Of a stretch of DNA of 64,000 nt, positions 12,114 to 60,679 are shown piece after piece. Each line of letters opens with the position of its first letter. Position 1 is the first letter of the stretch. A model generated the notes under the pieces. It searched no databases, was not told the DNA's origin, and saw nothing but the letters and a program-made list of their open reading frames with translations. Source of the stretch: an uncultured bacterium (GTDB lineage: Bacteria > Fermentibacterota > Fermentibacteria > Fermentibacterales > Fermentibacteraceae); contig CAZRWD010000001.1 of the NCBI GenBank assembly GCA_964603785.1, positions 485,638 through 549,637 of the forward strand. Direction: 5' to 3'. Made by a program: the position numbers and the translations under genes.

Positions 12114-12137
12114 GGCTTCCTTCCGGATGTTGTGCCG

Positions 12138-14187: not shown

Positions 14188-14225
14188 CGGGGCATGGAGC
14201 GGGCCTCCCCGCCCCGGACGGAGGA

Positions 14226-19246: not shown

Positions 19247-19893
19247 GCCCTACCCTCCGATCGTTCCATGACGATCTCCAGGCGTCTCTTGGAGGCCTTC
19301 TCCAGGAGATCCCCCTTCCTCAGCCCGTGGAACAGCTCCTCCGCGGCATCGCACGAGACCCGGCATTCCAGGGTGATCGAGCCGGGCCCGACGGTGCATC
19401 CCATCTCCCCGACCACCGAGCCATGGGTCCTGTCCAGGCCGTCGGCGACCCTGAGGATGCCCGCGAGCCAGTCGAGAACCTTCCGCGCAGCAGGATCGAG
19501 ATCGCGGTACACGGGGTCTTCGGGGGATGGAGGAGCCTTCCTGTGGTATCTCGCGAGAAGCGCGACCATCTCCCGGTCACGCTCCCCCAGACCGGTCCCG
19601 CCGGCCTCGAGGATCATCGCGGACGCCCTGGTGTGATGCCCCTTCCTGCCTCCGACGAGGCCGATGTCGTGGAGCATGGCGCCGCATTGGAGAAGCATCC
19701 TCTCCCTCGCCCCGAGCCCGTGTAGCCGGTTCAGGGCGTCGAACAGGCCCAGGGCGAGACGGCAGACCTGGCCGGTGTGCGCGTCGATGGCGCGGAGTGA
19801 ACCGGCGAGGTCCGCAACCCCCTGCGGGACTTCAGCCGCTCCCACCGGCGCCTCCGTCCGAAGCCTCTGCGGGGGCGAGCATCCCCGTGGCAT
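19243..19893 (-). CDS. Stand-alone HD-domain protein resembling the Ppx/GppA C-terminal HD domain (start uncertain)
   Basis: ...GQVCRLALGLFDAL....MLHDIG....LARYHRK....LAGILRVADGLDRTH. The ORF overlaps the CHAD gene 3' end by about 60 bp, so the true start is probably internal or non-ATG. Confidence 0.5.
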   Translation of the reverse strand: MPRGCSPPQRLRTEAPVGAAEVPQGVADLAGSLRAIDAHTGQVCRLALGLFDALNRLHGLGARERMLLQCGAMLHDIGLVGGRKGHHTRASAMILEAGGTGLGERDREMVALLARYHRKAPPSPEDPVYRDLDPAARKVLDWLAGILRVADGLDRTHGSVVGEMGCTVGPGSITLECRVSCDAAEELFHGLRKGDLLEKASKRRLEIVMERSEGRA

Positions 19894-20875
19894 GGTTCTC
19901 GATCGCGTCCAGGTCCTCCATCAGAGGATCGAGGAACCGGGCGCCGCCGGCCCTCCTCCAGGCCTTCGCGAGCCTCTTGAATGTCCTGACCCTCTCGATC
20001 CGCACGACCTCCCTGAGGTACTCGACCCCCGGCCTGATCGCCCTGAACGGCGCATCGGAGCCGAAGAACGCGGCCGAGAGCTTCTCCTCCCGCTTCTCGA
20101 AGGAGTCCAGGCGCGACATCCAGACGTCGCAGTCGTGAATGGTCCCGAGCATGGTCTGGACTGTTCTCAGGAAGGCGATCCTCTCGTCCAGCGGGAGGTC
20201 GGGTCGGCCGGCGAAGGACTCGAGGGAGTACCGCGCCTTCTTCACGAGGATCCTCGACCTGTGGTGAGCCTTCTCGTCCGACTCGTCGGCGAGGGCGGAA
20301 TCGAGGCCCGCGAGCGGGGCGGCTGCGGCCCTCATCGCGCGGGAGGCCAGGATCATGACGGCAGGAAGGGGATCCGCGGAGGGGTCGGCGGAGGCCGCCA
20401 GCCGCCGGGCCATCTTCCCGAGACCCGCCAGCGATTCGGACATCGCGAACATGGTGAGCGCCTTCCCGACCCGCCTGCGGCTCCTTTCCCGCTTCATGGA
20501 GATGCGCAGCGCTATCCTCCCGAGACCGGACAGGTGGGCCCTGGAGAGCCCCGCCCTGTCGAGGCGCTCGAGGTACTGCAGGGCGACATCGAGATCCCGC
20601 GCCCTGCCCAGTGAGCCCAGGAGCGTCTTCAACGCACTCCTCGCGTTGCTGACCGTCCGCGTCGGGAGTACGGGGGAGTATGCCGCGAGCAGGGCGTCGA
20701 GCCTCCGGGAGGCGACGCGCACCCTGTGCACGGCCTCCATGTCGGAGGGGTCGGCGAGGCCTTCGAGGTGCTCCGCGAGGATCGAGACCGATTGGAGGAC
20801 AGCGTCCGCCGCAGGTCCGACGGCCGCCGACAGGACCCTGCCGGACACCCTGGCCTTCTGCTCGGTCATCCACAC
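19832..20875 (-). CDS. CHAD domain protein (polyphosphate-granule-associated family)
   Basis: [26 protein letters not shown] and a repeated His/Arg-rich helical pattern ([22 protein letters not shown]) typical of CHAD. Confidence 0.7.
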
Positions 20876-22183: not shown

Positions 22184-23164
22184 TCACCAGCTCTCGAACG
22201 AGTCGATCTTGTCCAGGTAGACCCCGTCGAATCCCGCCGCCAGGATCCTGTCCAGATACGAGTCGGGCGAGCCGAAGATGATCCCCTGCCAGTCCGGATC
22301 CCAGTACTCCACCAGATAGTTGCCGGGCCAGTCGGGGTTCTCCGGGCCGAGCCATGAAGGGGGGCTCGAGGCCCAGCCGGGCTGCCAGTACCAGCGGTAG
22401 TCCTCGGCCTCCCCGATGCTCATGTAGCAAAGGACGAGCCTCTCCGCCCCCCCGGGTTTGGTCCGGAGCTGGGTGACCTGCGATGGCGTCAGCTGATCCC
22501 CACAGCAGAAGAGGTCCACCACGAACATGTCGTAGCCCGTGGCGGAAACCTCGTCGACGAAGTCGGCCGAGGTCCCGAAGGCCTGGTCGTTGATGATGTA
22601 CAGGAAGTTGTCGGCCGAGGACAGGCCGGGCACCGGGTCCGGGTCGGACTGCCAGGGCACGGCGGGGTACGGAGGGATGTCGTCGAGATCCCTGTGGTCG
22701 GCCGCGAACGACACGTATCCCCTCCCGTCGTTCCAGGCGTAGGAGCTGTCGATCTTCCACTCCGTCCAGCAGTAGTCCGTGACCATGACCTCGACCCCAT
22801 GCGATTCCGCCAGGTCGAGGAACGGCAGCATCCAGTCCACCTCGGACTGCGGGGTGGCGGCGTCGTCCGCGGTGTAGCCGAAGAAGAGGTCCTCCCTGCC
22901 CTGCCCGTCTATCGCCGCGACATAGGCCTGGGCCACAGCGCCGTCGGGCTCCAGGTCGAGGGTCAGCAGTTCCTGGCCGTTCTGTGGCACCACCAGGAAC
23001 CCGGGGACCTGCGCTTTCGCGTAGGCCGAGATATCCTGGACGAAGTCCCTCATGTACTGCGGGTAGGGCCCGGGATCGTCGTCCGGGCCGGTGCCTCCGC
23101 CTCCGCAGGCCAGCGCGAGGACGGCCGCCGCTGGAACCCACCTCTTCAGACCGGCCATCGGCAT
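22184..23164 (-). CDS. Glycoside hydrolase family 114-like lipoprotein (endo-alpha-1,4-polygalactosaminidase / PelA-hydrolase-like)
   Basis: Lipoprotein signal MPMAGLKRWVPAAAVLALACGG, then ...LVLCYMSIGEAEDYRWYWQ...GFDGVYLDKIDSFE, a TIM-barrel GH114 signature. Confidence 0.7.
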   Translation of the reverse strand: MPMAGLKRWVPAAAVLALACGGGGTGPDDDPGPYPQYMRDFVQDISAYAKAQVPGFLVVPQNGQELLTLDLEPDGAVAQAYVAAIDGQGREDLFFGYTADDAATPQSEVDWMLPFLDLAESHGVEVMVTDYCWTEWKIDSSYAWNDGRGYVSFAADHRDLDDIPPYPAVPWQSDPDPVPGLSSADNFLYIINDQAFGTSADFVDEVSATGYDMFVVDLFCCGDQLTPSQVTQLRTKPGGAERLVLCYMSIGEAEDYRWYWQPGWASSPPSWLGPENPDWPGNYLVEYWDPDWQGIIFGSPDSYLDRILAAGFDGVYLDKIDSFESW

Positions 23165-23286
23165 CCTCCATCCGGAACGGGGTGGCTGCGTCCGCCGGCC
23201 GGATCGTCGGGCGGGACTCCAGGCGCTTCTATCCGGCGGGCACCGGGAGCATGGGATCACCCGCGCGCTTCGTCCAGCAGCCCGGA

Positions 23287-25029
23287 TCAGCCGGCCCCCC
23301 GGACCTCCTCCTTCATCTCGAGCCTCCGGGCGATCTCCTCAGTCCAGAGCCTCGAGGAGGTCAGGAGGACGGTGGAGGACCTCCCGGGCGCGTCGACGAG
23401 CAGGATGCCGTGGAAATCACCGCTGCGATGGATCAGCCAGGCGGTGCTCGACTCGAGGTCGAAGAACAGGGTGTCCCCGATCACCCGTGCGGGTGGTATG
23501 GCGACGAGGCTGCATGGATCGAAGGGGTCGGAGAGGAGTACCCTCGCATCGGCATCCGCCCCGGCCAGCACGAGCGTGGAACGGCGCCCCAGAGCCCGGT
23601 CGACGGCCGTCCCGCTGCAGGGATCCAGCGCTAGCAGAGTGTCCGGAACCGTCTCGTACAGCAGCCCGGCCTCTATCTCCGACCGGATAGTCCTCCACCC
23701 TCCCCCGTCCGCCCTGGCCAGGGTGAACCGGTAGCAGTCCCCCGTAGAGACAACCGGCCATGCGGTCTCCCAGAAGGACCCGGCATCGTGCAGCCGTGAG
23801 CCGTCGCCGGAGCCCGCCGTCTCCAGCGCGGAGTCGAAGGCCCCGGGCCAGAGGGTCCCGTAGCCCGAGATCCCGTACTCAATGCCCTCCAGAAAGATCT
23901 GCTCGCCAGGGGCTCGGGCTGCAAGATCCCGCAGGGATCGTATCGTCGCGGACGTGTATGCTCCTGCCTGCGAGAGCCTCGAGACCTCGTCACGCGCGGA
24001 GAGCGCGCATCCGATGACGATGACCGCCGGCAGGACATGGGAGCGTATGCGGCGGGACCCCCTGGCCAGCAGGGCGATGACGACCGCAGCGAAGGGCAGG
24101 GCCGCATACGCGAAGTCGGACCTCGGAGGGAGGTTCGTGACGGTCGCCAGAGGAAGGACGAGGAGTCCGGCGATCCAGGCCCTCCTCCACCACGAGCCCC
24201 TGAGGAACACCAGCAGCGCTGCAGAGCCGAGGAGCACCACCCTGGCCGGGATCGAGTCGAGCCATGGCGAGAAGGGCATGACGGAGAGCGCCGCGAGGTT
24301 CCTCAGCATGAAGGGTCCGATGGTCGAGCTCTCGCCGTAGCTGAGGACCGGCCCGATCCAGGCCAGCCTCCAGAGGGAATACAGAAGCGTGGGTATCAGG
24401 AAGGCGCAGGTGCTCGCCGCGAATCTGCGGACCGGGCGGGCATCCCCCTCCGCAGACGCCGCCTGGAGGCCGAACAATGGTGCGGCGAGGAGCATCGTCT
24501 CCTTGAAGAGCAGGGATGCCAGGAAGGCCGTGCAGGCCCCTGCGAGAATCCATGTGCGCCTACGCCCGAGCCAGGCCCCGTGGAGGATCAGGGCCAGAAG
24601 CATCGGGGCGGTCGCGAGCATGGTGGTCCTGCCCGAGATCCTGCCCGCCGAGGGAACGACGGCCCAGGAGACGGCGAAGAGCAGCGTTCCCCAGAACACC
24701 GCGCCGTCCGGCATGCCGAGCCGCCTCAGCAGGATCGACACGAGGAGGATGTTGAGGAGGTGTATCGCCAGGTTTGTCAGATGCCACCCGGCGGGACGCG
24801 TCAGCCCCCAGACCGCGGAGTCGAATGCCCATGCCGCGACCGTCAGGGGTCGGAAGCCGCCGGCCTCGAACCCGGTGAAGGTCGAAGGCGAGAACTCGTG
24901 GTCGAGGTCGAGGAAGTCGTCGGCGAGGAAGCCGGAACCGACGCTCGGGAGCATGACGAGCACCATGGCAGAGATGATGCCTACTGCTGATGCGACCTTC
25001 ACCGTCATGCTCGCATGCACCTCCAGCAT
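23287..25029 (-). CDS. Polytopic membrane protein, GT-C-fold glycosyltransferase-like (ArnT/PMT-like) with C-terminal periplasmic domain
   Basis: About 11 predicted TM helices. The first loop, FLADDFLDLDHEF, resembles the GT39/GT83 acidic loop. Start taken at MLEVHASMTVKV; the track ORF has a Cys/Arg-rich 123-codon upstream extension. Confidence 0.55.
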   Translation of the reverse strand: MLEVHASMTVKVASAVGIISAMVLVMLPSVGSGFLADDFLDLDHEFSPSTFTGFEAGGFRPLTVAAWAFDSAVWGLTRPAGWHLTNLAIHLLNILLVSILLRRLGMPDGAVFWGTLLFAVSWAVVPSAGRISGRTTMLATAPMLLALILHGAWLGRRRTWILAGACTAFLASLLFKETMLLAAPLFGLQAASAEGDARPVRRFAASTCAFLIPTLLYSLWRLAWIGPVLSYGESSTIGPFMLRNLAALSVMPFSPWLDSIPARVVLLGSAALLVFLRGSWWRRAWIAGLLVLPLATVTNLPPRSDFAYAALPFAAVVIALLARGSRRIRSHVLPAVIVIGCALSARDEVSRLSQAGAYTSATIRSLRDLAARAPGEQIFLEGIEYGISGYGTLWPGAFDSALETAGSGDGSRLHDAGSFWETAWPVVSTGDCYRFTLARADGGGWRTIRSEIEAGLLYETVPDTLLALDPCSGTAVDRALGRRSTLVLAGADADARVLLSDPFDPCSLVAIPPARVIGDTLFFDLESSTAWLIHRSGDFHGILLVDAPGRSSTVLLTSSRLWTEEIARRLEMKEEVRGAG

Positions 25030-25082
25030 CGGCCGCAGCAAGGATTGTCGATACCTGCAGGATGCTCTTCCGCAGGATGGGT

Positions 25083-26561
25083 TTACTCTAAGTATCCTAT
25101 CAGTGAACCACGCAATCCGATGAATAAGTCGGGGCTCCCACTGCTCAGCACATTGACATGCAGCGTCTCTGAAGAGGTGAGTGATTCCATGGTACCGAAC
25201 CAACCGTTGCCCGAGAACCAGACATGTACATCCCTTTGTCTTCCGAGCTGGTCGGTGGCATATGCAGATGCGACCCTGTATACAGGTTGAGCAGCGATGA
25301 ATGGATCGCCACCCGACCCGATCTGGAACAGGTTCGTCGAACCGGTCATCTCGAGAGGCAGGAGAGGAGTGGTCACCGGTCTGTCGATGTCGCACCATTC
25401 GACACAGAAAGCCTCGGATGTGCCTAGGTCTTCACACTTCCGGGCTATCCAGCCATTGTTCCCCTCTGGAATCAGGTCGAACACCTGACTAGACCTGTTC
25501 CTCGGATCGGATACAGGAGAACCGAGAGCCCCGAGCTCCGACACGGCAACCCTCGCTGGATTCTGCCGCGAGACGGCCGAGCAGAATTCGATATCCGACA
25601 CGAATTCGACGTAGAACTCCTGCTCCAACAGGTCCGGATCCTGAAATGGCACCCTATCGGAAAGGACTGAAGCCTGGAGAGACATCGTTCCCTGATCCCA
25701 GGAAAGTCCCTGCAGGATGCTCGGTCGAGCAGACAGAGCGGCAGGAGGAGCATACTCGACCGCTATCCATGCCGTTCGCCACTTGCCTGCCTGAGTCACG
25801 GAATACCTTCCTGCCGCAGGATCACTCACGCACTCGGCAAGATACCCACGTCCACCAAGCAGAACATCAAGGTGGCCATCCTGGTTCACATCCCAGACTG
25901 ATGCTCTCATTGCCATCCGGGGTGGGATCTCATCGAGAACCACGTGAGTCGTGTCATCCGCGATCAGGCTCCATGCTCCGAAGGAGCCGGAGGTTCCGGT
26001 GATGATGATCGGCTTGTCGTCGGCCCGTATCACGAGGAGATCCGGGTATCTCGCCCCGTCCGGGTTTTCTTCGAAGCTGAAATCACCCCACTCCAGGTCG
26101 AGAACGTCCATGTGACCCTCGAGCAGGATGATAGGAGTCGTGCTGAGGCCGGTAGGGGAATTCAAGAAGCAGATCACAGGTCGATCCTCGTCGAGGAGAA
26201 CGCTCGAACCGACAACAAGATCCTGTTGACCATTCCCGTCGACATCCGCCCACTGGAGGCACTGGTAGCCGCCTGCAAGCTCGCAGTTCCACCCGTCCTT
26301 TACAAGAAAACCGAAGATGTTGCACGTCAGGACGAAGACACGACCTCCCGATGAAAGAGGATCTGCCGGATCATACGAGTAGGTGGCCACGGCAATCTCT
26401 ATCTTGTTGTCAGAGTCGTAATCGCAAGATGCGATATCTGTTACTATCCTCGCCGGAGAGCCTCCGACATTGTAGAGCCAGCCGGGAGCTGCTGCGCTGC
26501 TCGCAGCAGAAAGAAGTATGAGTGCGAGGACTGCTGTATTCATGCTTGTCATCATGCTCAC
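25083..26561 (-). CDS. Secreted FG-GAP/VCBS-repeat protein
   Basis: Signal peptide MSMMTSMNTAVLALILLSAASSAAAP. Repeated DxDGNGxxDLVVG and DVNQDGHLDVLLGG calcium-binding-like FG-GAP motifs. In a lower-GC region. Confidence 0.7.
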   Translation of the reverse strand: MSMMTSMNTAVLALILLSAASSAAAPGWLYNVGGSPARIVTDIASCDYDSDNKIEIAVATYSYDPADPLSSGGRVFVLTCNIFGFLVKDGWNCELAGGYQCLQWADVDGNGQQDLVVGSSVLLDEDRPVICFLNSPTGLSTTPIILLEGHMDVLDLEWGDFSFEENPDGARYPDLLVIRADDKPIIITGTSGSFGAWSLIADDTTHVVLDEIPPRMAMRASVWDVNQDGHLDVLLGGRGYLAECVSDPAAGRYSVTQAGKWRTAWIAVEYAPPAALSARPSILQGLSWDQGTMSLQASVLSDRVPFQDPDLLEQEFYVEFVSDIEFCSAVSRQNPARVAVSELGALGSPVSDPRNRSSQVFDLIPEGNNGWIARKCEDLGTSEAFCVEWCDIDRPVTTPLLPLEMTGSTNLFQIGSGGDPFIAAQPVYRVASAYATDQLGRQRDVHVWFSGNGWFGTMESLTSSETLHVNVLSSGSPDLFIGLRGSLIGYLE

Positions 26562-28399
26562 CTCACCACAGCGATCTTGTCAACCGCGATCACATCACCC
26601 TGTAGATTCTGCACACCTACAAGATATACCGAGCATGGAAGATGACCCAGACTGAACTGCTGTATCCACGAACCACTCGATGAGTGCACACCACCCGAGA
26701 CCACTGGAACGATCCTCCCTGCAATGTCGAAGACATACACTCGAGTATGGAGAGAGCTGGTTACAGTGAGGGTGCAGTCCGCCTTGTCGAAATCGATAAC
26801 GGCATCCACATGACCGGCGGGGATCGTGCATGTGGTTATCGTCTCGGAGACAAGCCCATATCTTACCCAGCCGTTCACTGGTAATGTGTATCGATTCTCT
26901 CCTGGAGAGGTGGTCAGGATGGGAGTACCATCCATCTCGTAGAAGTCCAGGCCGGCAACTCCCGGCGGGAGTTCGACTGGAACCTGATACACCCTGTCTG
27001 GGGGGAAGTCTCCCGCAACTTCGGTTCTGTGCGTACGGAATGCATAAACTAAATCATCGGGCTCTGCCTGGGGTGGGCAGAATACCCATATCCTGGCTGA
27101 GATGCCTGGAGCGACGGACACCTCATGTGGTGCGCAGTATAACTGCATACCTGACAGCAGACATGCTTGATATCTGTATGCAACGTCACCCAGGTATGAC
27201 TCGCCTGTGAAGTGCTGTGGCGACCACTCATAGACTCCCCAACCCTCCACCCACCAGGCACTCTCGCCTCCGAATGGCAGCAGCGGGGCAAGGATCCCTG
27301 TGCTGGGCGACTCGGCCAGAAGCAGGTTGGAGGTGATGAAATAGTTCGCACGCCAATCGGTGAAGAAGGAATCCTCGGGGAGGCTTCCGGGAGTGAAGCA
27401 TCCTTCCCATGTCGCCTTGTGATAGGACGGGCAGTACTCGAGCATGTACTGGGGCATGGTGGCCCATGATGGATCACCGGTGAATAGTCCGTCGAGAAAG
27501 CTTCCTGCGAGAGATGTAGGTCGGTCACGGTACATGAGGTCAGTTGGATCGATCACGAGCGGGTCGAACCACCATTCAGGTGTTGTCTCAGATTGCACTG
27601 GCATTTCCATGTCGTCGTAAGGATGCCAGTGGAATGCATCCGGAGGAGTACTCCACCTGAATGGAACAGACCCATCTAAGCTTGACTCCCCCGAGAACAT
27701 ATGCTGGAGAGCATGATGAGCATGATCTTCCCAGTCCTCCTCGCCCCGCTGCGAGAAGGGAGATAGGAATCCTCCCGAGACGATGGTACAGGCTGGATCC
27801 ACCAGTCGTATCCTGTCAGCAGCCTGCTGTGCGACCCTGAAGTAGGCGTTGTATCCGACATACACAGATTCTGAAGGTTCGTTGTATTCCCTGAAGCACA
27901 TGATCCCGATTCCGTCTGGTTCGTTCCATAGACCCCAGGTAGTGACTCCCCTGCCGTCATCCGATAACAGTCCGTTCGGTCGGTAGCGATGGACGATCGC
28001 CTCGAAATAGTCCGCGTAGTAACCCTCTCTGCTCGGCACAGGCCTGTTGTTATGCACACCGTATGGATAATCTTCCTTATTCCCGGTGAACCAGCCCACA
28101 GCCCAGTCCGGTGTATAGCCCTCCTCGGCGATGATCTCGCCATCATCTGGTAGGACGGAGAGCAAGGTATCGAGCCTTCTGTCGCTGTAAGCCCAGAGAT
28201 ACATCCCTTCTACGAGCTCGTTGGGGCTGATGTCATTCTTCGCAAAAAGGACGGTGATTCCGGGGCGGGTTCCGGGGAAGCTGGTGAAGTATTCCAGTTC
28301 CTCCTGGTTCAATCCAGGTGTGTTGATACCGAATCGCAGACCAGCGAAGGTCTGGCCCGCGATTGCTGCGAGGAGAAGAAGGTCGATCCGTCTGATCAT
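26558..28399 (-). CDS. Secreted glycoside-hydrolase-like TIM-barrel protein with Por/T9SS-type C-terminal sorting domain
   Basis: Signal peptide MIRRIDLLLLAAIAGQTFA. GLWNEPD (NEP acid/base-like motif of clan GH-A). C-terminus ...TRVYVFDIAGRIVPVVSGG.....YLVGVQNLQGDVIAVDKIAVVR. ATGA overlap with the upstream FG-GAP gene. Confidence 0.65.
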   Translation of the reverse strand: MIRRIDLLLLAAIAGQTFAGLRFGINTPGLNQEELEYFTSFPGTRPGITVLFAKNDISPNELVEGMYLWAYSDRRLDTLLSVLPDDGEIIAEEGYTPDWAVGWFTGNKEDYPYGVHNNRPVPSREGYYADYFEAIVHRYRPNGLLSDDGRGVTTWGLWNEPDGIGIMCFREYNEPSESVYVGYNAYFRVAQQAADRIRLVDPACTIVSGGFLSPFSQRGEEDWEDHAHHALQHMFSGESSLDGSVPFRWSTPPDAFHWHPYDDMEMPVQSETTPEWWFDPLVIDPTDLMYRDRPTSLAGSFLDGLFTGDPSWATMPQYMLEYCPSYHKATWEGCFTPGSLPEDSFFTDWRANYFITSNLLLAESPSTGILAPLLPFGGESAWWVEGWGVYEWSPQHFTGESYLGDVAYRYQACLLSGMQLYCAPHEVSVAPGISARIWVFCPPQAEPDDLVYAFRTHRTEVAGDFPPDRVYQVPVELPPGVAGLDFYEMDGTPILTTSPGENRYTLPVNGWVRYGLVSETITTCTIPAGHVDAVIDFDKADCTLTVTSSLHTRVYVFDIAGRIVPVVSGGVHSSSGSWIQQFSLGHLPCSVYLVGVQNLQGDVIAVDKIAVVR

Positions 28400-28506
28400 T
28401 CTATCCTCCTACCACTTCAAAGAGTATTTGTGGAATAGACCATTCGTCAGAGTCGGGGTCAATTACTCTTGTCGTGTGCCTTCCCCCTCTGTTGGCAAAC
28501 ACTTGA

Positions 28507-30045
28507 ATGCGGGATAGAATAGACGTGCGTTGTCTTTCCTATGGCTTCCCGGGAAACCTACAGCGGCGGATCGAACTGGTGAATCAGAAAGAGATTAACA
28601 GGCTGCTCTCAGCATCCATGATCCTCGCCCTGTGCATCTACTACATCCTCCTCCAGTCCAGGGCGCTGATGCTCCCATGCTACATGGACGTGGTCTACTC
28701 GTTCGGATCGGGCGTGAAGCTCTATCAGGAAGGCCACTTCTCCAATACGATGATGCTCTACGGGCTCCTCAACCCGTACGTCGTCGAAGGGCTTCTCCGC
28801 CTGGGGGCCGGAACCGGCAGTTTCATTCTGGCCAGGCATGCCCAGGGGTTCTGGCTGATCCTGGCGGCGCTGGGCATCGCGGGAAGCCTGAGAGCCCTCC
28901 TGAACGACCGGATCTCGCGCATCGCAGCCGCGCTGGCGGGGATGTCGATCCTGGTGTCTGTCCCAGCGTCGATCGAACTGCTCGACGTCAGGCCTGAGAA
29001 TCCGGCCATGGCGGGGATGGCCCTGCTCATGTGGGGAGTCCTCTCCAGGCGGGATTCCAAGCACCAATCGCTTCTTGTCGTTGCGGCCTCCGTATTGCTG
29101 ATCGGCGCCAGGCCTTCGAACGTTATCCTCATCGGCCCGGCGGTCGTTCTTGCGGCCTGCCGGGTTCTGGATCGAAAGAGCTATCGAGACAGCCTTTTAG
29201 CAAGGATGAGGACACCACTTCTCTGGGCGGGTGGCACCCTCCTCTTCTCCATCATTCTCTACCCCTCATACTTCATCCATTATAGCAGCCTCCTGGATCA
29301 GCTAAGGGAGTTCTACTGGCAGCGCTCCCCTCATTCCATCTCCATATCGCTCGCCGCCCTCAATGCTCTGCTGACCTCCGGGTACCTTCTCCTCGCCTTC
29401 CCCGGCCCAGTCCATGCCGCAGGCATCTCCGTCTTCGCGGCGCGGAGCATCAGAAGCGGGAAGCTTGACCGGAGGCTTTTCCCGCTCCTGGCAGGACTCC
29501 TCCCATTCCTACTCGCCTTCCTCTCGGACGAGAACTACCAGCCCCGCCACATGACCCCACTGATCCCGGTTCTGGTCACCATCTCGGTCCTGGGCTTCCA
29601 TCACCTCCTCCGGTCCGGCAGAGCACTCTTCACTTCGGCCATCATCATCCTCGGGGCTGTCTCCGTGACGGAGCACGCGGACCTCCTCGGGAGGAAGTTC
29701 GGTGGAGGCCTGCTCGATGTGCTCGATTACATAGCCTGGACTCGCATCGCCCCGGTTGGGGGGGAAGGCGAGTTCTTCGCGCCGAGGATGTACGAATCGA
29801 CGGCGGATGTCTGCTACCCCCTGGCTCCGTTCTGCCAAACGACCTCCGGCTCGGGCGGCTTCCTCGTCACCGACCGGGTCCGTCCGGAGAGGCTCGTCTT
29901 CTCGTCAGGCTCCGACACGGACTGGACTCGAGAGGTTAGGGCATTCGCGAATCCCGGCATGGGTTCGCTCATCATCCAGTTGAGGTCCCCCTGGACATGG
30001 AGGAGCTGGGGGCCGGTCAACCTCTACGATATCGGCGGAAGATGA
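28507..30045 (+). CDS. Polytopic integral membrane protein of unknown function (possible GT-C/O-antigen-polymerase-like)
   Basis: At least 10 hydrophobic helices and no recognisable catalytic motif. The start may alternatively be Met38 (28618, MILALCIYY). In the lower-GC island. Confidence 0.55.
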   Translation: MRDRIDVRCLSYGFPGNLQRRIELVNQKEINRLLSASMILALCIYYILLQSRALMLPCYMDVVYSFGSGVKLYQEGHFSNTMMLYGLLNPYVVEGLLRLGAGTGSFILARHAQGFWLILAALGIAGSLRALLNDRISRIAAALAGMSILVSVPASIELLDVRPENPAMAGMALLMWGVLSRRDSKHQSLLVVAASVLLIGARPSNVILIGPAVVLAACRVLDRKSYRDSLLARMRTPLLWAGGTLLFSIILYPSYFIHYSSLLDQLREFYWQRSPHSISISLAALNALLTSGYLLLAFPGPVHAAGISVFAARSIRSGKLDRRLFPLLAGLLPFLLAFLSDENYQPRHMTPLIPVLVTISVLGFHHLLRSGRALFTSAIIILGAVSVTEHADLLGRKFGGGLLDVLDYIAWTRIAPVGGEGEFFAPRMYESTADVCYPLAPFCQTTSGSGGFLVTDRVRPERLVFSSGSDTDWTREVRAFANPGMGSLIIQLRSPWTWRSWGPVNLYDIGGR

Positions 30046-30332
30046 GAGGGCTCGGCAGACAAGGACACAGGATCGAAAAAGCACTGCACACCATGCGATT
30101 CGTATAGAGCGAACCTACTATCTGGTGAAAGGTTCAGGGCTGCGATGTCATGAATCGACTGCGATCAACATCTGCATGCAAGGAAGCTCAGAAGCCAGGT
30201 GCCCACGGAAGCAGGGTCCTTCCTGAACGGATCCCGACGATCTGCCAGAGTCCAGCAGTCAGCAAAACCACCCAACCAGTGCCCTGGAACGGGAGTGCCC
30301 GGTCCGAGACAGCGATTAACAGGTCTGGCTCT

Positions 30333-32171
30333 TTATCTCAGCAGAACGAACGACACCCCGCCTTCAGGACACCTTTTGACATGGGCGAAGTACACTCCGT
30401 TCGGCGCGACAGAGCCATCCGCACATCTGCAATCCCACGAGATCGAGACGGGAGACTCCATCTCCCCGACATCGATCGTCGTCACGATCCTGCCCGAGAG
30501 GTCGACGATACTGACCTCGTCCGGGGGTGACCCGGATGAGAAGATCAGCCTGAAGGTGGCAGTATCCCTGACCGGATTACCCGAGAGGACTGAGATATCC
30601 GCATCAGGGCACGAGCCCCCGGGTGACTGCCGTGTAGTCTCCTCTATCCACTGAATCCAGTCGGCAGTGACATTCTCCAGCCGGACCCTGTAGGGGGGGA
30701 GTCCACAGTCCACCAGAGTTCCGGATCCTCCATACATTCCATACACACGTACGAACCTGGTCGAGACGGGGATCCTGATTGCGGAGATCACCGGTGACGG
30801 GAATTCTGCCCTCACCATATGTGTGTTCAAGCCGCTTCCCGGATCATGGAAGGTGTGCACCCAGGCTGCATTGTTGATGAGTCCCGGGAGGATCCTTGTC
30901 CTGGATGTGCAGTAGCTCCCTCTGAGCAGGTGTGCCATCCTCGCATAGGCATCGAAGAAGAGGTCTACATCCTCCTCCGAATCGTTCCACCAGTCCTCGA
31001 AGTTGTAGCCGGGATGCACCGGGCCGGTTACATCGTCGATGTCGGTGTCGAAATGGAGATAGGCGACCCTCCCCGAGACGGCCATGTCGGCGAGGGAGCT
31101 GAGCTGAAACGAGATGTGATGATCCATGCTCCAGAACGCTGACGAAATCTGCATCCACCATGGAGATGAGCCTGCCTCGAGCACTGCGAGCTGTGAGCAA
31201 TGCCCGTGCTGCTCGAGCATCGTTGCATACTCCACGCTTCTCTGTGCGAAGGACGCGTACTCGAAGTATTCGTAGTCCGGATCGGGAATCACCCAGACTC
31301 CCGAGTGCGGTCCGGGATTCATCGGGTCGTTGTACCCCGAGTATCCATGCCAGTCTATCGTCTGAGGAGCGCAGTTGTACGGATCGCAGGCCGTCTCCGG
31401 TGTGAACTCGGAGAGCACGGTGTTCATGTAAACTGGAAACTCGCCGACGTAGAGTCCGGTAACCCAGGGTTGACAGGGGTATCGGAGAGTCTCCCAGAAT
31501 GGTTGAGCCATGAAGCTCAGAGCCACGTCGGCCTCAGGGTTGTACTGCCTGACAGAATGTCTTATCTGCTTGTAGTAGTCAGCGAGAGCACCCTGCTCCT
31601 TCTGATCCGGCGGAAGGTGGTTTCCCATAAGGTCATTGGCACACCACCATAGATCAGATTCACCAAGGGGATTGAACCGCTCCACGCCCCAATCATCCGT
31701 CCATCCCAGGTAAGTCGGCAGGAGCCCTTCGGGGGAGTACCTCTCGGCGAGGAGACTGTAGAAATCCGAAAATAAATCCAGGTTCTCGTAGTCGCAGAAA
31801 CGGGAGAAGCCAGGTGGATTCTTACTTACCATCCATATACACCAGGTTGGTGCCTGATCAGGTCTTGCGGACAGGCAGAGTGAAATGTCACCAGATGGAT
31901 CCTCGGCCGATGCCTCATGGGCGTCCGAGACAATGCTGTCGAGGAGGGCCCAGTTGAAGACTCCTGGATAGAGCACATCCGTCTGTCCGATGCAGAGCTG
32001 TATCGAGGTGATGTCATGCGAGAGGCATCTCTGGAAGATGTCATAGTACTCACAGTCGAAGGAGCCTTCGAGATAGAAACCGAACTCCAGGGGAATCGGG
32101 GCGGGTGAATCGGCAGGCTGGCCCACGCTGACCGGATTGAGGGCATTGATCATCATCATGAGCAAGATCAT
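30333..32171 (-). CDS. Secreted glycosidase-like protein with Por/T9SS-type C-terminal sorting domain
   Basis: Signal MILLMMMINALNPVSVG. C-terminus DISVLSGNPVRDTATFRLIFSSGSPPDEVSIVDLSGRIVTTIDVGEM....SWDCRCADGSVAPNGVYFAHV is a textbook T9SS CTD pattern. Start chosen at 32171; the track ORF has a 108-codon upstream extension. Confidence 0.7.
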   Translation of the reverse strand: MILLMMMINALNPVSVGQPADSPAPIPLEFGFYLEGSFDCEYYDIFQRCLSHDITSIQLCIGQTDVLYPGVFNWALLDSIVSDAHEASAEDPSGDISLCLSARPDQAPTWCIWMVSKNPPGFSRFCDYENLDLFSDFYSLLAERYSPEGLLPTYLGWTDDWGVERFNPLGESDLWWCANDLMGNHLPPDQKEQGALADYYKQIRHSVRQYNPEADVALSFMAQPFWETLRYPCQPWVTGLYVGEFPVYMNTVLSEFTPETACDPYNCAPQTIDWHGYSGYNDPMNPGPHSGVWVIPDPDYEYFEYASFAQRSVEYATMLEQHGHCSQLAVLEAGSSPWWMQISSAFWSMDHHISFQLSSLADMAVSGRVAYLHFDTDIDDVTGPVHPGYNFEDWWNDSEEDVDLFFDAYARMAHLLRGSYCTSRTRILPGLINNAAWVHTFHDPGSGLNTHMVRAEFPSPVISAIRIPVSTRFVRVYGMYGGSGTLVDCGLPPYRVRLENVTADWIQWIEETTRQSPGGSCPDADISVLSGNPVRDTATFRLIFSSGSPPDEVSIVDLSGRIVTTIDVGEMESPVSISWDCRCADGSVAPNGVYFAHVKRCPEGGVSFVLLR

Positions 32172-32182
32172 CTCTGCTCCCG

Positions 32183-33661
32183 TCAGTTCTGCAGGAAGGA
32201 CCTGTCCTGGCCGTCGCAGGCGAAGATCAGGTCTGGCTTCCCGGTTCGAAGGACGTCGGCGGTGAGTATGCCCGAGGAATGGGTCGGATTCACGAGTGAA
32301 ATGAAGGCCACATCGCGGTCGAGATGGTATTCGTCCTGATCCAGAGGGGTTCCGTTCACCCTCACGTTCATGATGCCGTTGACAGGCCCATCGAGGAAGA
32401 ATGTCTGACAAGCCACGTCGATCTCGAGTGAGATCGGACTGGATGCCACCCCATCGCCATCGATGTCGCCGATCGCCAGGGCGGTCTTCGGACATGCATC
32501 CGTGCTCATCCAGGCAACCTCTGCGAAGGATCCGACGCCTTCCCAGTCCACCTCGGTGACAATCGCCCTGGTACTGGTCATGTAGTGCGTCATGCCGTCA
32601 GATCTGCGAACACCCCTCTGGGCAATGACGAGTTCACAGTCCCCGTCCCCGTCCAGGTCGGCCGCATCGATTCCGGCAGTCGCATTGAAGATGTCATCAT
32701 CAGGGCATGGGGGGACGAAAGCCAACGATCCCGTTGTCATTCCAGTCTGAGTGGAAAGACCGTAGCAGATTGAGGCGCCGTTGCATCCGACCCAGTCCGG
32801 ATGATCAAGCCCGTCCAGTTGCCTGATATGATATTCGTTGGCGAACAACGGCTTGTCATCGGTTGCCTCCGGCCAGGAGGGCTGGTCCGGGTTGATAGGC
32901 GGCATGATCCCGGGCAGGAATTCGTAGATGTATGCCTTCGAGATCGAGTATCCCTGCTCCTGTACCCATTTCCAGGAGCACAGCAGATGAACGGCTGCCG
33001 AGGACGTGGCGAACTGGGGGAATCGCCCTACGCAGAAACCTTCCTGCCAGTAGTATCTGAAGAGTTCTCGCGTATCCGTGGAAAGCCCCCTCGGGTCGCT
33101 CTCGTAGAAGCAGATCCTCGATCCCTGGTTTCCACTGAGGAGCTCGAGTCTCCCATCGCGGTCGAAGTCGATGAACTGCAGGTGGATGGTATCCCGGTGA
33201 TCTGCAGACACCCACGAGGGATTGCTCGAGAACGAACCGTTCCCGAGGTTCTCGAAGATCACGTTCTCACCGGAACCGGGCATGACGACAAGACAACCAG
33301 CAGCAATATCCAGATCTCCATCGTTATCATAGTCACCAGCAGAAAGACATCTGTATCCGGCAGTATAGGAAGAGGTCCAGTCTGGGGTTACGCCGAGGAT
33401 ACCGTTTTGATTGAAGTAGAGATATACGTGACCGACACCCGACTCTCCGTAGCTGCAGATAGCTGCATCTAGCCAGGAATCACCGTCAAAGTCAGCCAGT
33501 ATGACGTCCGTGCTCGTCTCGTCACAGGAAGAATACCATGCCGGTTCAGAAAAGGATACCGGATCATCTTCATGAAAGCCGATCATTGTGATCATGAGAA
33601 TACAGGATGTCATTCCTCCTCCTTTGAGTACCTGCAGTAAAACCAACATCATGTTTGGCAA
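32183..33661 (-). CDS. Secreted FG-GAP/VCBS-repeat protein (paralogous in architecture to 25083..26561)
   Basis: DFDGDSWLD, DYDNDGDLDIAAG, DFDRDGRLELLSG, DLDGDGDCELV and DIDGDGV repeats. Possible alternative start at 33613 (MTSCILMITMIGF). Confidence 0.7.
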   Translation of the reverse strand: MPNMMLVLLQVLKGGGMTSCILMITMIGFHEDDPVSFSEPAWYSSCDETSTDVILADFDGDSWLDAAICSYGESGVGHVYLYFNQNGILGVTPDWTSSYTAGYRCLSAGDYDNDGDLDIAAGCLVVMPGSGENVIFENLGNGSFSSNPSWVSADHRDTIHLQFIDFDRDGRLELLSGNQGSRICFYESDPRGLSTDTRELFRYYWQEGFCVGRFPQFATSSAAVHLLCSWKWVQEQGYSISKAYIYEFLPGIMPPINPDQPSWPEATDDKPLFANEYHIRQLDGLDHPDWVGCNGASICYGLSTQTGMTTGSLAFVPPCPDDDIFNATAGIDAADLDGDGDCELVIAQRGVRRSDGMTHYMTSTRAIVTEVDWEGVGSFAEVAWMSTDACPKTALAIGDIDGDGVASSPISLEIDVACQTFFLDGPVNGIMNVRVNGTPLDQDEYHLDRDVAFISLVNPTHSSGILTADVLRTGKPDLIFACDGQDRSFLQN

Positions 33662-33945
33662 GATTCTCTCACAAAGTGCATCTATGTAAATATTTGACTA
33701 TAGAATCTGCTCTAGCAAGATCCTGAAAGGGCATGATAATGGTAATGAATGGGATTATCTGGAACTGAATGCTACATGAACACTCCGAATACTCTCCCCC
33801 TTGATCAGAGGAGACCGATCTCGAAGTGAAGCATGGACTTGGAGGGACCTGCAGTCCATCTCCCATGCTGGGCTGAAGACGCGTTGATCAGGCGCAGGTT
33901 GTGTTCAGCATAGGGATAGATCTCCGGGTCGGGCCTCGGATGGCC

Positions 33946-35364
33946 TCAGTTCACTCCGGAGGCAGTCAGATCCGACATTTCCCCCTCACGCAGAGCCGGA
34001 TCCCGGACAAGGATCCTTACTATCTCCCCGGCGAGTATCCTGTTGCCCTCGGGATTCAGGTGACATCCGGACATGTCGGTGTACACGGGTGTGGTGACGC
34101 TGTCGAAGATCGTCGAGAAGTCATGGAAGCCCTCCGTGCTGTCGGCATGGGTGGACGCATGCTCGCGGGTCAGCAGAAGTAGCTCATTGCATGCGGGATC
34201 GGAGTTCTCCCCGACCGACGCCAGGCCTCTTATCCAGATCGAATCCTCATGGCTCGTCAGTGTCTTGCTCCCGCACCAGATGACGGGCTGCCAGATGAGG
34301 CAGCACTCGAATCCGTAGCACTCCCCGAGGGTCTCGGCGATATCCATGTTCTCGCGGTATAGCGTGAAGGTGCTCTCCGCGAGTCCTGGCACATCGATCC
34401 CGCGCATCTCAAGTGTGACCAGTTCGCCGAAATCCTGTCGGAGGAGTCCGCCGGTGCCGATGAGATGGATCGCCTGTCCGGTGCAGGTCCTCGCCAGCAC
34501 CTCCATCAGGAGGCGGGACTGGAGCCTGAGGATATCCCTGCCTTCCACCCTCTCGGACATCCGGGAGAAGTTCTGGTGCTCCCCCGGTCTGCCCGACTGA
34601 TACGAGCTCCAGAAATCGTTGAAGCCATTGCAGAATACGGCGACGTCAGGGATGTTGCCGTCCCGGATCTCGAACATGAGGCACAGCAGGTCCTGCGTCG
34701 ACACCCACGATATTTGACCGAAGTTGGTCACGGTTACCGCACGATCGAGCTCCTCTTCCAGAAGACCCTGCAGATAGGAGGCCACCGTGCAGGAATCGGG
34801 CACTCCCTCGCCCCATATCGATGAACCTCCGAAAACGAAGACCTTGAGCGCCCGGGGATCCGTGCTGGCTCCCGGAGTGGTCCTGAGACCACGCGAATCG
34901 GTTGTTTCGTCCCCGGAGAGGTAGGGATCGGCATGCCAGACGAGGAAGGATTCGTAATGCCCGAGCACCGAGGAGACCTCGTCCTCCAGCAGGCCGCCGG
35001 ACAGCTCCTTTCTGTGCCTGATCTGCAGCTCGTCGGGAGTCCAGAGTTTGATCACGATAAGGGACAGGATCTCAAGAGCCAGAAACAGCAGGAGAAGGTT
35101 CAGAAGGATCATGGATGCTTGTCTGTAAATCATCGTCGAACGCCTGCCGAGTGCCGCGGTGGCAAGCAGGATCAGTCCGGCGATGAGGATCAGCACCTGG
35201 TTCCGGCTGAAGCCCTCCCCGGCACTGAGACCCAGCCGGTCGGCCAGGAGGGTGGCGGCCACGAGCAGGAATCCGGCACCTGCCGACGCTATTTGCAGCA
35301 ACCTGACCGCGGGGTCGCTCAGACGTCCGGCAGGTCGTCCTTCAGGGAAGGCAGGTCCGCTCAC
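33946..35364 (-). CDS. Membrane-anchored SGNH/GDSL-family hydrolase-like protein
   Basis: Three N-terminal TM helices, then VFVFGGSSIWGEG (block I Ser) and C-terminal DMSGCHLNPEGNRILA (block V DxxH). Confidence 0.65.
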   Translation of the reverse strand: MSGPAFPEGRPAGRLSDPAVRLLQIASAGAGFLLVAATLLADRLGLSAGEGFSRNQVLILIAGLILLATAALGRRSTMIYRQASMILLNLLLLFLALEILSLIVIKLWTPDELQIRHRKELSGGLLEDEVSSVLGHYESFLVWHADPYLSGDETTDSRGLRTTPGASTDPRALKVFVFGGSSIWGEGVPDSCTVASYLQGLLEEELDRAVTVTNFGQISWVSTQDLLCLMFEIRDGNIPDVAVFCNGFNDFWSSYQSGRPGEHQNFSRMSERVEGRDILRLQSRLLMEVLARTCTGQAIHLIGTGGLLRQDFGELVTLEMRGIDVPGLAESTFTLYRENMDIAETLGECYGFECCLIWQPVIWCGSKTLTSHEDSIWIRGLASVGENSDPACNELLLLTREHASTHADSTEGFHDFSTIFDSVTTPVYTDMSGCHLNPEGNRILAGEIVRILVRDPALREGEMSDLTASGVN

Positions 35365-36647
35365 CCGCCGGCGACCTCGCGCGCGATTGTGCTGTTGCCC
35401 TCAGCGTTGAGGCTGGTGCCGTCGTGGTCGATGTACACGGTCTCTGCCGTGTCGTCGAAGACGCCTTCGAGGCTGGCGAAGCGTCCAGTGGCCGAGGAGG
35501 CCGAGTCGGCGATGGCGTACGAGGCGTCGATCAGGTCCATCAGGGCCTGGTCGAGCTCCACGCCTGCGTCGTGGAACAGGACCTCGCCGGCGGTGAGGAC
35601 CTTCGCGCCCCTCCAGACGCAGGGCTGCCAGTAGAAGCGTGCCTCGAAGCCGTAGAGCCTGCCGAGGTCCGAGGCCATGCGGGCGTTGCCCTCGAAGGCC
35701 GCCACGACCTCCCTCGCGAGCCTCTGCGTCGAGATGCCCAGCTCCTCGTAGGTCATGACGGGCTCCTGCTCCTCCTCGGGTGAGAAGAGCCCCGAAGCGA
35801 GCCGCCATGTGCTGGTGCTCCGCAGGACCGCGCCGCAGGGGTCGGCACCCGGCGAGGATCCCGGCGAGAACGGGGCTCCCATCGCCTGCAGATCCAGATG
35901 CGCGCCTGCACGACCGCTCTGCCAGGCAGCAACGACATCCTCCATCCCGCCCAGGAAGATGACTAGGTCGGGTCTGCCGCCGTCCCGCAGCCTCAGGAAC
36001 AAGTCGGTGACGGCCTGGGTCGAGACCCACCCCGGACGGGCCATGTTCATCACCCTGACGGGCCGCTGGACCCGCCCCGAGATCTCCTGCTGCAGGAAGC
36101 AGGGAATGGTCGCGGAGTCGCCGACCAGGGGGCCCAGGACGGTTCCGGAGCCGTACACGAGGACGGTGTAGGCCGTGGAGTCCTGCGACGCGCCCGGGAC
36201 CGCGCGGCATCCGGCCTCCATGGTCATGTACGGGAAGTCCGCCCAGGGGTCGATGGTCCAGGCCACGAACGGCTCGTATACCAGACCCTCCTGCAGACCG
36301 ACCACGATGGAGCCCGATGACCGTGAGGAGCCGCCGCTCACGAGCAGGCCCCTGCTGCCCAGGAGGCCGGCCGCCCCGAAGGAGAGGACCTCCACCGCGC
36401 AGGCCAGGATGACGAGGCTGATGACGATCAGGCCCAGGCCGCGGTAGAGCCCCGGGAAGTGCCTGCCGAGCATCGCGGCCGTCAGGAGGATGGCTGCCAG
36501 CGCTGCAGATATCGCCTGGAAACGCGCAAGCCCTTCCGAGGCTCCCATGCCCATTCCGTCAGCGAAAATCGCGCAGGCCGCCAGCCCGAGGCCCGAGACC
36601 AGGGCCAGGAGCCTCAGGACCGTGACTGTCCCGTCCTTCATCGTCAT
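35361..36647 (-). CDS. Membrane-anchored SGNH/GDSL-family hydrolase-like protein (tandem paralog)
   Basis: Start MTMKDGTVTV after GGGAGGG. LVYGSGTVLG block, WQPCVWRGAKVLTAGE and C-terminal YIDHDGTSLNAEGNSTIAREV; aligns with the downstream paralog. ATGA overlap. Confidence 0.65.
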   Translation of the reverse strand: MTMKDGTVTVLRLLALVSGLGLAACAIFADGMGMGASEGLARFQAISAALAAILLTAAMLGRHFPGLYRGLGLIVISLVILACAVEVLSFGAAGLLGSRGLLVSGGSSRSSGSIVVGLQEGLVYEPFVAWTIDPWADFPYMTMEAGCRAVPGASQDSTAYTVLVYGSGTVLGPLVGDSATIPCFLQQEISGRVQRPVRVMNMARPGWVSTQAVTDLFLRLRDGGRPDLVIFLGGMEDVVAAWQSGRAGAHLDLQAMGAPFSPGSSPGADPCGAVLRSTSTWRLASGLFSPEEEQEPVMTYEELGISTQRLAREVVAAFEGNARMASDLGRLYGFEARFYWQPCVWRGAKVLTAGEVLFHDAGVELDQALMDLIDASYAIADSASSATGRFASLEGVFDDTAETVYIDHDGTSLNAEGNSTIAREVAGG

Positions 36648-60677: not shown

Positions 60678-60679
60678 CC

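Follow-up and report, generated by a model that had tools for sequence, protein, structure and literature searches.

The O-antigen rfb and capsule loci of Enterobacteria keep conserved flanks around a hypervariable centre of lower GC (guanine plus cytosine) content, exchange allelic cassettes by recombination without dedicated mobility genes, and give cassette trees that are incongruent with those of their neighbours. The O-antigen clusters of Salmonella, for example, have a low and segmentally heterogeneous GC of 28-45%, compared with 51-52% for the genome (PMC3715488). Here we describe a locus of this general kind in a 64,000-nucleotide stretch of the genome of an uncultured member of the Fermentibacteraceae (phylum Fermentibacterota; GenBank assembly GCA_964603785.1, contig CAZRWD010000001.1, positions 485,638 to 549,637), which we call the window. 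It holds a GC-poor block that encodes two glycosidase-like proteins (GH-A and GH-B), two FG-GAP beta-propeller proteins (FG-GAP-A and FG-GAP-B, or FG-A and FG-B) and one polytopic membrane protein (MEM512), beside a gene of native composition for a membrane glycosyltransferase of the GT-C fold (GT-C580). We think it reasonably probable that the block is an accessory cassette in a hypervariable envelope-glycan locus, gained by lateral exchange among members of the Fermentibacteria phylum. Unlike O-antigen and capsule loci, it has no Wzx/Wzy, ABC exporter, initiating transferase, GT-A/GT-B or nucleotide-sugar pathway genes in or near it, and its variable units are glycoside hydrolase (GH)-like enzymes, predicted to be exported, and FG-GAP propellers beside a GT-C gene. 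Accessory cassettes of low GC within variable surface loci are a known kind of feature, and no general principle is changed; what is new lies at the family level, namely an unannotated, phylum-restricted family of clan GH-A type with a fixed propeller partner and a GT-C neighbour, AT-shifted in each host for which there is DNA.

An earlier interpretation made from the letters alone, the sequence-only reading, had proposed a horizontally acquired surface or glycan-processing island bounded by an abrupt composition shift at about 25060 and a return at about 33950-35400. The shift lies where it was placed, far beyond chance. The nine 1-kb bins between 25 and 34 kb have a mean GC of 0.566, against 0.670 (sd 0.023) for the 54 bins outside; the low-GC bins have z-scores from -2.2 to -6.8 (Mann-Whitney p = 2e-6 versus the rest of the window), and of the change points given by entropy segmentation the two strongest lie near 24875 and 35140, with a GC of 0.684 to the left, 0.570 in 24876-35140 and 0.659 to the right. 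The left edge is indeed abrupt: a spacer of 53 bp separates the GT-C gene, which starts at 25029, from FG-GAP-A, whose stop is at 25083, and the edge falls there. On the right, GC recovers stepwise, first at 33.9 kb and again at 35.4 kb, by way of an intermediate gene (33946-35364, SGNH2) whose 5' part contains the right change point. The proposed level, about 50% against about 68%, holds for the flanks (66-68%) but not for the block, which is at 57%; only the 332-bp intergenic stretch upstream of FG-GAP-B drops that low (0.42-0.49).

Codon usage deviates significantly from the flanks as well (Table 1). The 28 native genes have a GC at third codon positions (GC3) of 0.874±0.032 (minimum 0.817) and a codon-usage distance B of 0.21±0.06 (maximum 0.31), and MEM512 and SGNH2 are intermediate between these and the four secreted-protein genes. 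The GC-normalised tetranucleotide correlation of the block with the flanks is r = 0.894, compared with 0.958±0.010 (minimum 0.927) for size-matched native chunks, which is a significant yet modest deviation. Elsewhere in the window, a second and smaller GC dip (0.593) occurs at 60001-61000, just upstream of a gene for a TonB-dependent receptor.

The block is not conserved in relatives. In comparing related contigs and loci, which carry L-number labels, we refer to the glycosidase-like gene and FG-GAP gene of the GH-A/FG-A type as the pair, to GH-A with FG-GAP-A as module A, and to GH-B with FG-GAP-B as module B. A high-GC clade shares housekeeping genes with the window (W) at 62-89% identity and a tetranucleotide correlation of 0.91-0.95, and in this clade the stretch from EamA/MFS to ThiC is a hypervariable locus. 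The window, L012, L014, L015 and L016 differ there in the set and order of SGNH paralogs, GH/FG-GAP pairs, MEM512-like genes and carbamoyltransferase genes, and the accessory members of the locus are GC-poor. The block is absent from L012, where the order is MFS-EamA-...-SGNHx3-GT-C-GH114-SGNH-epimerase-PPIase-ThiC-LTD and the last SGNH gene overlaps GT-C by 8 nt, and from L014, where EamA lies directly beside GT-C. L016 has GH114 and SGNH on the minus strand, then GT-C, and no pair; L015 has the same order with a GH-A/FG-A pair before GT-C and a MEM512 homolog between ThiC and GH114. A 13.6-kb JGI contig (metagenome 3300075153) carries three SGNH genes, a GH gene (P0002), an FG-GAP gene and GT-C, followed by GH114 on the opposite strand and ThiC.

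Beyond this clade, the pair stands before GT-C in two loci (L026 and L028) of a second clade with a GC of about 0.59. Here L009 provides an empty site: both of its flanks are 81% identical in nucleotides to L026 with exactly the 3.6-kb pair missing, and the site (9880-10043) holds no pair remnant and no repeat. Conversely, L010 (6596-11793) and L026 (6600-11790) share a 5.2-kb block of GH, FG-GAP and GT-C genes at about 80% nucleotide identity, with unrelated flanks. In the most distant locus, L021 (GC about 0.50), modules A and B lie side by side, beside a GT-C580 relative and a GT87-family protein. The pair is thus linked to GT-C in 8/8 pair-bearing loci (window, JGI contig, L010, L015, L021, L024, L026 and L028), and GH-like relatives were found only in Fermentibacterota-like loci. 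Pair GC is 0.08-0.18 below the flanks in all seven of these loci for which DNA was at hand (the JGI contig is not among them): 0.557 against 0.671 in the window, 0.481 against 0.659 in L015, 0.455 against 0.588 in L010, 0.457 against 0.588 in L026, 0.451 against 0.612 in L028, 0.443 against 0.578 in L024, and 0.421 against 0.498 in L021, whose module B is at 0.409. One import from a donor of low GC does not account for an AT shift across so many hosts.

Direct evidence of lateral exchange in this cassette family comes from trees. Neighbour-joining trees with 500 bootstrap replicates were made for GH, FG-GAP and GT-C. The GH tree joins the window with the JGI contig (97%) and L015 with L010, L026 and L028 (100%), and the FG-GAP tree recovers the latter group (100%). 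In the GT-C tree, the window groups with L009, L010, L026 and L028 (94%), and the JGI contig with L015, L016 and L017 (100%). Alternative groupings have 0% support. Because these trees conflict, the pair and the GT-C gene only 50-90 bp downstream must have different histories. Further direct evidence comes from L026 and L028, where divergence at four-fold sites is 0.12 for FG-GAP, 0.27 for GH, 0.40 for GT-C and 0.43 for the next gene (Fisher p = 2e-9), and where a sliding comparison finds a tract of about 2.4 kb within the pair at 93-98% identity, with 73-86% on both sides. This tract is a recombination mosaic between species-level relatives, and it argues against the pair being AT-rich simply from fast evolution. 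The horizontal acquisition that had been proposed is thus supported by every check suggested with it (GC, tetranucleotides, codon usage and synteny), and also by the tree conflict and the recombination tract in the cassette family. Rather than a foreign import that happened once, however, the block is best seen as a cassette that circulates inside the phylum, in a glycan locus that is hypervariable. As a separate observation, the native-GC GT-C gene itself comes in two deep types within the high-GC clade (window, L012 and L014 versus L015, L016, L017 and the JGI contig), and at 97% bootstrap the first of these types joins the GC-0.59 clade. The GT-C neighbour may also be subject to allelic replacement.

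It could also be that the block is ancestral and vertically inherited, such that the modules are old partners of GT-C that have been lost repeatedly, and that AT-richness is intrinsic to them, owing to weaker selection or less GC-biased gene conversion in fast-evolving, weakly expressed surface genes. Such a history would fit the fact that many lineages, L021 with its adjacent modules included, carry the pair next to a GT-C ortholog, and that the pair is AT-shifted in every host, its GC roughly tracking that of the host (0.42-0.56 for hosts of 0.50-0.67). It would also fit a tetranucleotide signature near that of the host clade (r = 0.89) and the lack of mobility genes or repeats. We nevertheless consider it unlikely, since pair and GT-C trees conflict at 94-100% bootstrap and the pair of L026 and L028 is less diverged (0.12-0.27) than its neighbours (0.40-0.43), which is the opposite of intrinsic fast evolution. 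Fast evolution is therefore unsupported as a cause of the low GC; moreover, two fast-diverging native genes, those for a peptidyl-prolyl isomerase (PPIase, 48-55% identity between relatives) and for GT-C (42-51%), retain a GC3 of 0.86. We also rejected the idea that low GC follows from being secreted or being cargo of type IX secretion (T9SS), because a native cargo-type gene in the window, with lamin-tail (LTD) and FlgD_ig domains, has a GC3 of 0.87.

Table 1. Features of the block, its flanks and other parts of the window (GC, GC3 and codon-usage distance B where determined).
Feature	Position	Strand	GC	GC3	Distance B	Description
LTD+FlgD_ig protein	7253-10993	+		0.87		1246 aa; native GC
NAD-dependent sugar epimerase	11118-12113					left flank
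TPP riboswitch	14104-14194	+				Rfam RF00059, 68.4 bits; directly upstream of ThiC
Ppx/GppA-HD-polyphosphate kinase 1 ORF	15539-19246	-				1235 aa
HD/Ppx-GppA_III protein and CHAD protein	19243-19893, 19832-20875					follow the 1235-aa ORF
GH114-family hydrolase gene	22184-23260	-				native GC; Pfam Glyco_hydro_114 E = 2e-16
GT-C580	23287-25029	-	0.68	0.86		580 aa; flanking GT-C-fold membrane glycosyltransferase
FG-GAP-A (FG-A)	25083-26561	-	0.56	0.62	0.53	492 aa; secreted-looking beta-propeller, downstream gene of module A
GH-A	26558-28399	-	0.55	0.61	0.55	613 aa; glycosidase-like, module A
MEM512	28507-30045	+	0.61	0.78	0.26	512 aa; polytopic membrane protein between both modules, opposite strand
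GH-B	30333-32171	-	0.57	0.70	0.40	612 aa from the MILLMMM start; glycosidase-like, module B
FG-GAP-B (FG-B)	32183-33613	-	0.56	0.67	0.44	476 aa; alternative TTG start at 33661; upstream gene of module B
AT-rich intergenic stretch	33614-33945					GC minimum of the window, in 300-bp windows; presumed promoter region of module B
SGNH2	33946-35364	-	0.61	0.76	0.28	472 aa; membrane-anchored, SGNH/GDSL-like; right shoulder of the low-GC segment
SGNH1	35361-36641	-	0.69	0.89		right conserved flank, then EamA, MFS
Ras/Arf-like GTPase and Roadblock/LC7 protein	56487-57558	-				adjoining genes
TonB-dependent receptor	61020-63338					downstream of the second GC dip

The gene content is as the sequence-only reading had it, and GH-A (a protein label, not to be confused with clan GH-A) is the member that says most about function. 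It matches no Pfam or NCBIfam family, and no GH model of either collection matches GH-A, GH-B or any of the members of the GH-A family, of which an exhaustive hidden Markov model (HMM) search turned up just 10 representatives among 1.84 billion representative proteins. Further homology searching with the family profile returned only two proteins that were already known; weak remote profile matches are to proteins with GH5, GH42, GH53 or GH_cc domains, and the closest relative is P0002 on the JGI contig (43-45% identity). Behind a signal peptide-like N-terminus, the AlphaFold2 (AF2) model (pLDDT 68, pTM 0.70) predicts a (beta/alpha)8 barrel, whose eight beta/alpha units alternate along residues 22-415, and then two beta-sandwich domains, the C-terminal one of sorting type. 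Three motifs are invariant in the family alignment, WxEPDG (with E160), HWHPYD and LEYCP (with E321), and in the model they sit just after strands beta4, beta6 and beta7. N159-E160-P161 follows the strand at 154-156 (beta4) and E321 the strand at 317-319 (beta7).

When the GH-A model is compared with PDB by Foldseek, PslG comes first (GH39; E = 1e-12, TM-score 0.64 on target), with matches to 4zn2, 5bx9 and 9g17 at E ~1e-12 and TM-scores of 0.61-0.64 on target, followed by GH39, GH30, GH51, GH44, GH86 and GH5 enzymes (E = 1e-12 to 1e-6). PslG belongs to the psl operon of Pseudomonas aeruginosa and is anchored at the inner membrane. Like PslG, GH-A combines a (beta/alpha)8 barrel with a beta-sandwich in its model, shows the clan GH-A pattern of N-E after beta4 and E after beta7, and is encoded within a glycan-biosynthesis locus. 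Unlike PslG, it has an extra C-terminal sorting-type domain, suggesting T9SS export, and its partner enzyme is a GT-C protein rather than the Wzx/Wzy-type Psl machinery; structure-based identity is only about 13%, and there is no Pfam GH39 match. From the fold and the conserved residues we take GH-A to be an as yet unclassified, phylum-restricted enzyme of clan GH-A type, with PslG/GH39 as best fold match and a predicted rather than observed function.

GH-B and GH-A are distant paralogs: hhalign aligns GH-B to the GH-A family over its whole length (probability 95.6%, E = 1.2e-8, 459 columns). The spacing of its acid/base motif is atypical (N167..G170-E171), and it also has E332 (VLE) and DWHxY; all of these are conserved in its ortholog in L021, the sole one found, which is 36-38% identical and adjoins an FG-B ortholog. 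Tandem duplication of one module was considered as a source of the two and rejected: GH-A and GH-B are homologous at profile level only (BLASTP E = 0.03; hhalign E = 1e-8), FG-A and FG-B share 26% identity (over 161 aa), gene order differs between the modules, and L021 has both. Any duplication would be ancient.

Both FG-GAP proteins contain three matching stretches each, FG-GAP-B to Pfam FG-GAP_3 (PF13517) at E = 1.8e-24 and FG-GAP-A to FG-GAP_3 at E = 7.7e-8 and to FG-GAP at E = 2.3e-7. Calcium-binding loops of DxDxDG type are seen in the translations (DFDGDSWLD, DYDNDGDLD, DFDRDGRLE and DLDGDGDCE), and FG-GAP-B matches the CRTAC1 propeller in PDB (E = 8e-5). Orthologs of FG-GAP-A (27-38% identity) follow GH-A orthologs in L010, L015, L021, L024, L026 and L028, and the FG-GAP-B ortholog in L021 is 31% identical.

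All four secreted proteins had been credited with signal peptides. Judged by eye, hydrophobic, signal peptide-like N-termini are present on GH-A, GH-B, FG-A and their homologs, and that of FG-B is ambiguous. Two of the four had also been said to carry C-terminal domains (CTDs) of Por/T9SS type. For GH-B this holds marginally, as its C-terminal domain passes Pfam FlgD_ig at 27.6 bits (cut-off 27) and stays below the cut-off of TIGR04183 (17.4 bits; cut-off 23). GH-A itself matches no CTD model, although its AF2 model ends in a beta-sandwich, and 4/10 members of its family match Por_Secre_tail (PF18962) weakly (best E = 1.3e-4, under the gathering score). C-terminal sorting domains on the GH-like proteins are thus plausible and weakly supported. 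Like the type-A CTD cargo of Bacteroidota and the wider Fibrobacteres-Chlorobi-Bacteroidetes (FCB) group, these proteins appear to combine a signal peptide-like N-terminus with a C-terminal beta-sandwich of about 80 aa, FlgD_ig or Por_Secre_tail matches and a conserved terminal strand of K-V-V-x-[KR] type, and there are other cargo-like proteins in the phylum, such as the LTD+FlgD_ig protein of the window. Unlike such cargo, they have marginal or sub-threshold HMM scores and come from a lineage outside Bacteroidota. No genes for T9SS machinery (PorK/L/M/N, Sov/SprA, PorV, PorU) were found within the 64-kb window. Two side observations concern cargo of this kind. The native LTD+FlgD_ig protein has two lamin-tail domains and a FlgD_ig-type CTD, with a 56%-identity ortholog at the same place in L012. 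On L028, a Fermentibacteria-like contig, the gene at 10995-13013 (minus strand) encodes a Peptidase_C25 (gingipain-family) protein with Por_Secre_tail, the domain arrangement of classical T9SS-type cargo.

The recurrent neighbour of the pair, GT-C580, has native GC and an AF2 model with pLDDT 82.6, whose best 25 PDB matches are all GT-C enzymes (among them EmbB/C, PglB, AglB, ArnT, STT3, ALG12 and Pmt4). It shares with GT-C glycosyltransferases such as ArnT, PglB/STT3, PMT, EmbA-C and ALG the fold, an acidic motif in the first extracytoplasmic loop (DDxLDLxH, invariant) and a C-terminal soluble domain; unlike them it belongs to no Pfam family, and its remote sequence matches are to TPR+PMT_2 proteins. 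The family numbers about 19 close relatives, all Fermentibacterota-like, and the taxon-named genome records with such relatives are all metagenome-assembled genomes (MAGs) of Candidatus Fermentibacteria, Fermentibacteraceae or Aegiribacteria. MEM512 could not be linked to GT-C. It has at least seven hydrophobic segments, a C-terminal soluble domain of about 120 aa and a conserved Asp motif in its first loop (LPxYxD). It matches no Pfam family, its PDB sequence search returned only noise, and an NCBIfam match to the glycan hexose transferase WsfD (E = 0.018) is weak and below cut-off. A full-length homolog in the same locus of L015 (25-28% identity, E = 1e-25) is GC-poor too (0.56). Kinship of MEM512 with GT-C580, or with the GT87-like neighbour that takes the corresponding position in L021, found no support in profile comparisons, which showed no similarity. 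A glycosyltransferase-like role might be suspected.

SGNH2, at the right shoulder, has a weak Pfam Lipase_GDSL_2 match (E = 0.003) and is 29-31% identical to its native-GC neighbour SGNH1. Its best relative, in L016 (49% identity), is likewise GC-poor for its host (0.57 vs 0.64). As an aside, the array of membrane-anchored SGNH/GDSL-like paralogs is an expanding one: members are 29-40% identical to one another, and the window has two (33946-36641) and L012 five, at 2086-10008 and 12818-14323. L015 and L016 keep the SGNH1-EamA-MFS adjacency of the right flank; on the left, L012, L015, L016 and the JGI contig have a GH114 ortholog (64-74% identity) next to GT-C.

What might the cassette do? The triad of clan GH-A-like enzyme, FG-GAP propeller and GT-C protein, the GH114 and SGNH neighbours and the PslG-like fold lead us to infer that it remodels a self-made surface glycan or exopolysaccharide, and the label of surface or glycan processing given before fits these features. 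Once exported, the GH-like enzymes would probably cut or remodel a surface glycan or exopolysaccharide that the adjacent GT-C protein would help to build, as PslG does for Psl, with the propellers perhaps serving as glycan-binding or scaffold partners, and cassette swapping would then change surface-glycan structure. The main functional rival accepts the same origin and holds that the block is a nutrient-acquisition island for degrading environmental polysaccharides, its adjacency to envelope genes being incidental. In its favour, proteins with T9SS-type CTDs would be expected to pass the outer membrane, and many xylanases, arabinofuranosidases and mannanases have clan GH-A folds. Fermentibacteria, moreover, were described as fermenting sugars while having no recognisable secreted glycoside hydrolases (PMC5030696), a gap that a divergent, unannotated family could fill. 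Against it, the block has no transporter, SusC/D-like pair, sugar kinase or regulator. The linkage to GT-C in every pair-bearing locus, joined in the high-GC clade by GH114 and SGNH, and a best structural match that is an enzyme of an exopolysaccharide biosynthesis operon make an environmental substrate quite unlikely in our view. As for the chance that the low-GC stretch is a chimeric metagenome join from another organism, it is negligible: the lineage is uncultured and represented here by metagenome-derived assemblies and MAG records only, and the left boundary is abrupt and lies in a short spacer, but eight contigs assembled independently from other runs (ERR4539294, ERR14964780, SRR30104876-83) are 99.99-100% identical to the window, the longest three (L001-L003) span both junctions, and homologous pairs stand beside GT-C orthologs in at least five other lineages.

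Returning to lateral exchange within the phylum, we propose that cassettes move by homologous or illegitimate recombination, with conserved neighbours as anchors and no dedicated mobility gene, and that cassette turnover outpaces amelioration, so that the cassette would stay AT-rich relative to its hosts, as O-antigen and capsule cassettes do. The block is not a classical genomic island. It resembles one in its atypical GC, codon and k-mer signature, its sporadic distribution and its surface-related cargo, but its relatives come from one phylum only and the hallmarks of mobility are missing. Origin from a mobile element was rejected on several grounds: scans of the block proteins with PHROGs and PADLOC gave no matches, tblastn with GH-A found no match in 72,556 plasmids or 50,697 phages, and GH-A has no relative among IMG/VR contigs.

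A number of observations weigh against our interpretation. No integrase, transposase, conjugation or phage gene was found (Pfam for the larger open reading frames (ORFs) of the window, Pfam and NCBIfam for the block proteins), there is no tRNA or tmRNA in the 64 kb, and no direct or inverted repeats bound the block, the only repeats being short and at chance level. Nor does the 64 kb contain Wzx/Wzy, an ABC exporter, an initiating transferase, or GT-A/GT-B transferases; all that turned up in this respect was the NAD-dependent sugar epimerase gene of the left flank. The k-mer signature of the block correlates at r = 0.88-0.89 with host-clade flanks (window, L012, L015) and at only 0.46-0.56 with other Fermentibacterota (clade-2 DNA), and from such likeness to the host clade it follows that the donor was related or that the block has long been resident. 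The pair is at host GC in none of the sampled genomes, and no donor was identified. No close strain relative was found either, the best GT-C match outside the strain being 51% identical, so that acquisition in the window is read from composition, from tree conflict and from the absence of the block in syntenic relatives that are fairly distant (L012, L014 and L016); loss of the block in these syntenic relatives, instead of gain in the window, could also account for the pattern. On the functional side, substrate, enzymatic activity and T9SS export are all predicted features, and confidence in the GH-A model is only moderate.

A few further features of the locus deserve mention. The AT-rich stretch upstream of FG-GAP-B yielded no clear regulatory signals, as consensus promoter and terminator scans gave matches not above shuffled expectation. 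On the left flank, a TPP riboswitch precedes ThiC, and in the 1235-aa ORF an HD-domain-bearing Ppx/GppA exopolyphosphatase (residues 36-469) is fused to a full polyphosphate kinase 1 (564-1214). Such a union of polyphosphate synthesis and breakdown in one polypeptide is unusual; it is followed by a second HD/Ppx-GppA_III protein and a CHAD protein. Far to the right, a small Ras/Arf-like GTPase adjoins a Roadblock/LC7 protein, forming an MglA/MglB-like polarity pair.

We find it tempting to go further, and to see the pair as a self-contained, phylum-wide swappable cassette that founds a new family of clan GH-A, has repeatedly been recombined 5' of GT-C, is AT-rich in every host, and forms part of a three-part surface-glycan diversifier, for example for phage-receptor or antigen variation. 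This broader proposal is possible and, on balance, doubtful. Whatever its fate, lateral exchange with a visible recombination tract is documented here in Fermentibacterota, a phylum that we see as metagenome contigs and MAGs. The conserved three-gene association, which links a clan GH-A-like enzyme with an FG-GAP propeller and a GT-C protein, escapes standard annotation entirely, as Pfam lacks a model for three of the four families concerned, and it qualifies the published statement that secreted glycoside hydrolases are missing in Fermentibacteria (PMC5030696). The pair, 8-18 GC points below hosts of 50-67% GC, also offers a natural series for asking why accessory DNA stays AT-rich. The locus is therefore relevant to the cell envelopes of candidate phyla, to the discovery of carbohydrate-active enzymes (CAZymes) and to the AT-richness of accessory DNA.

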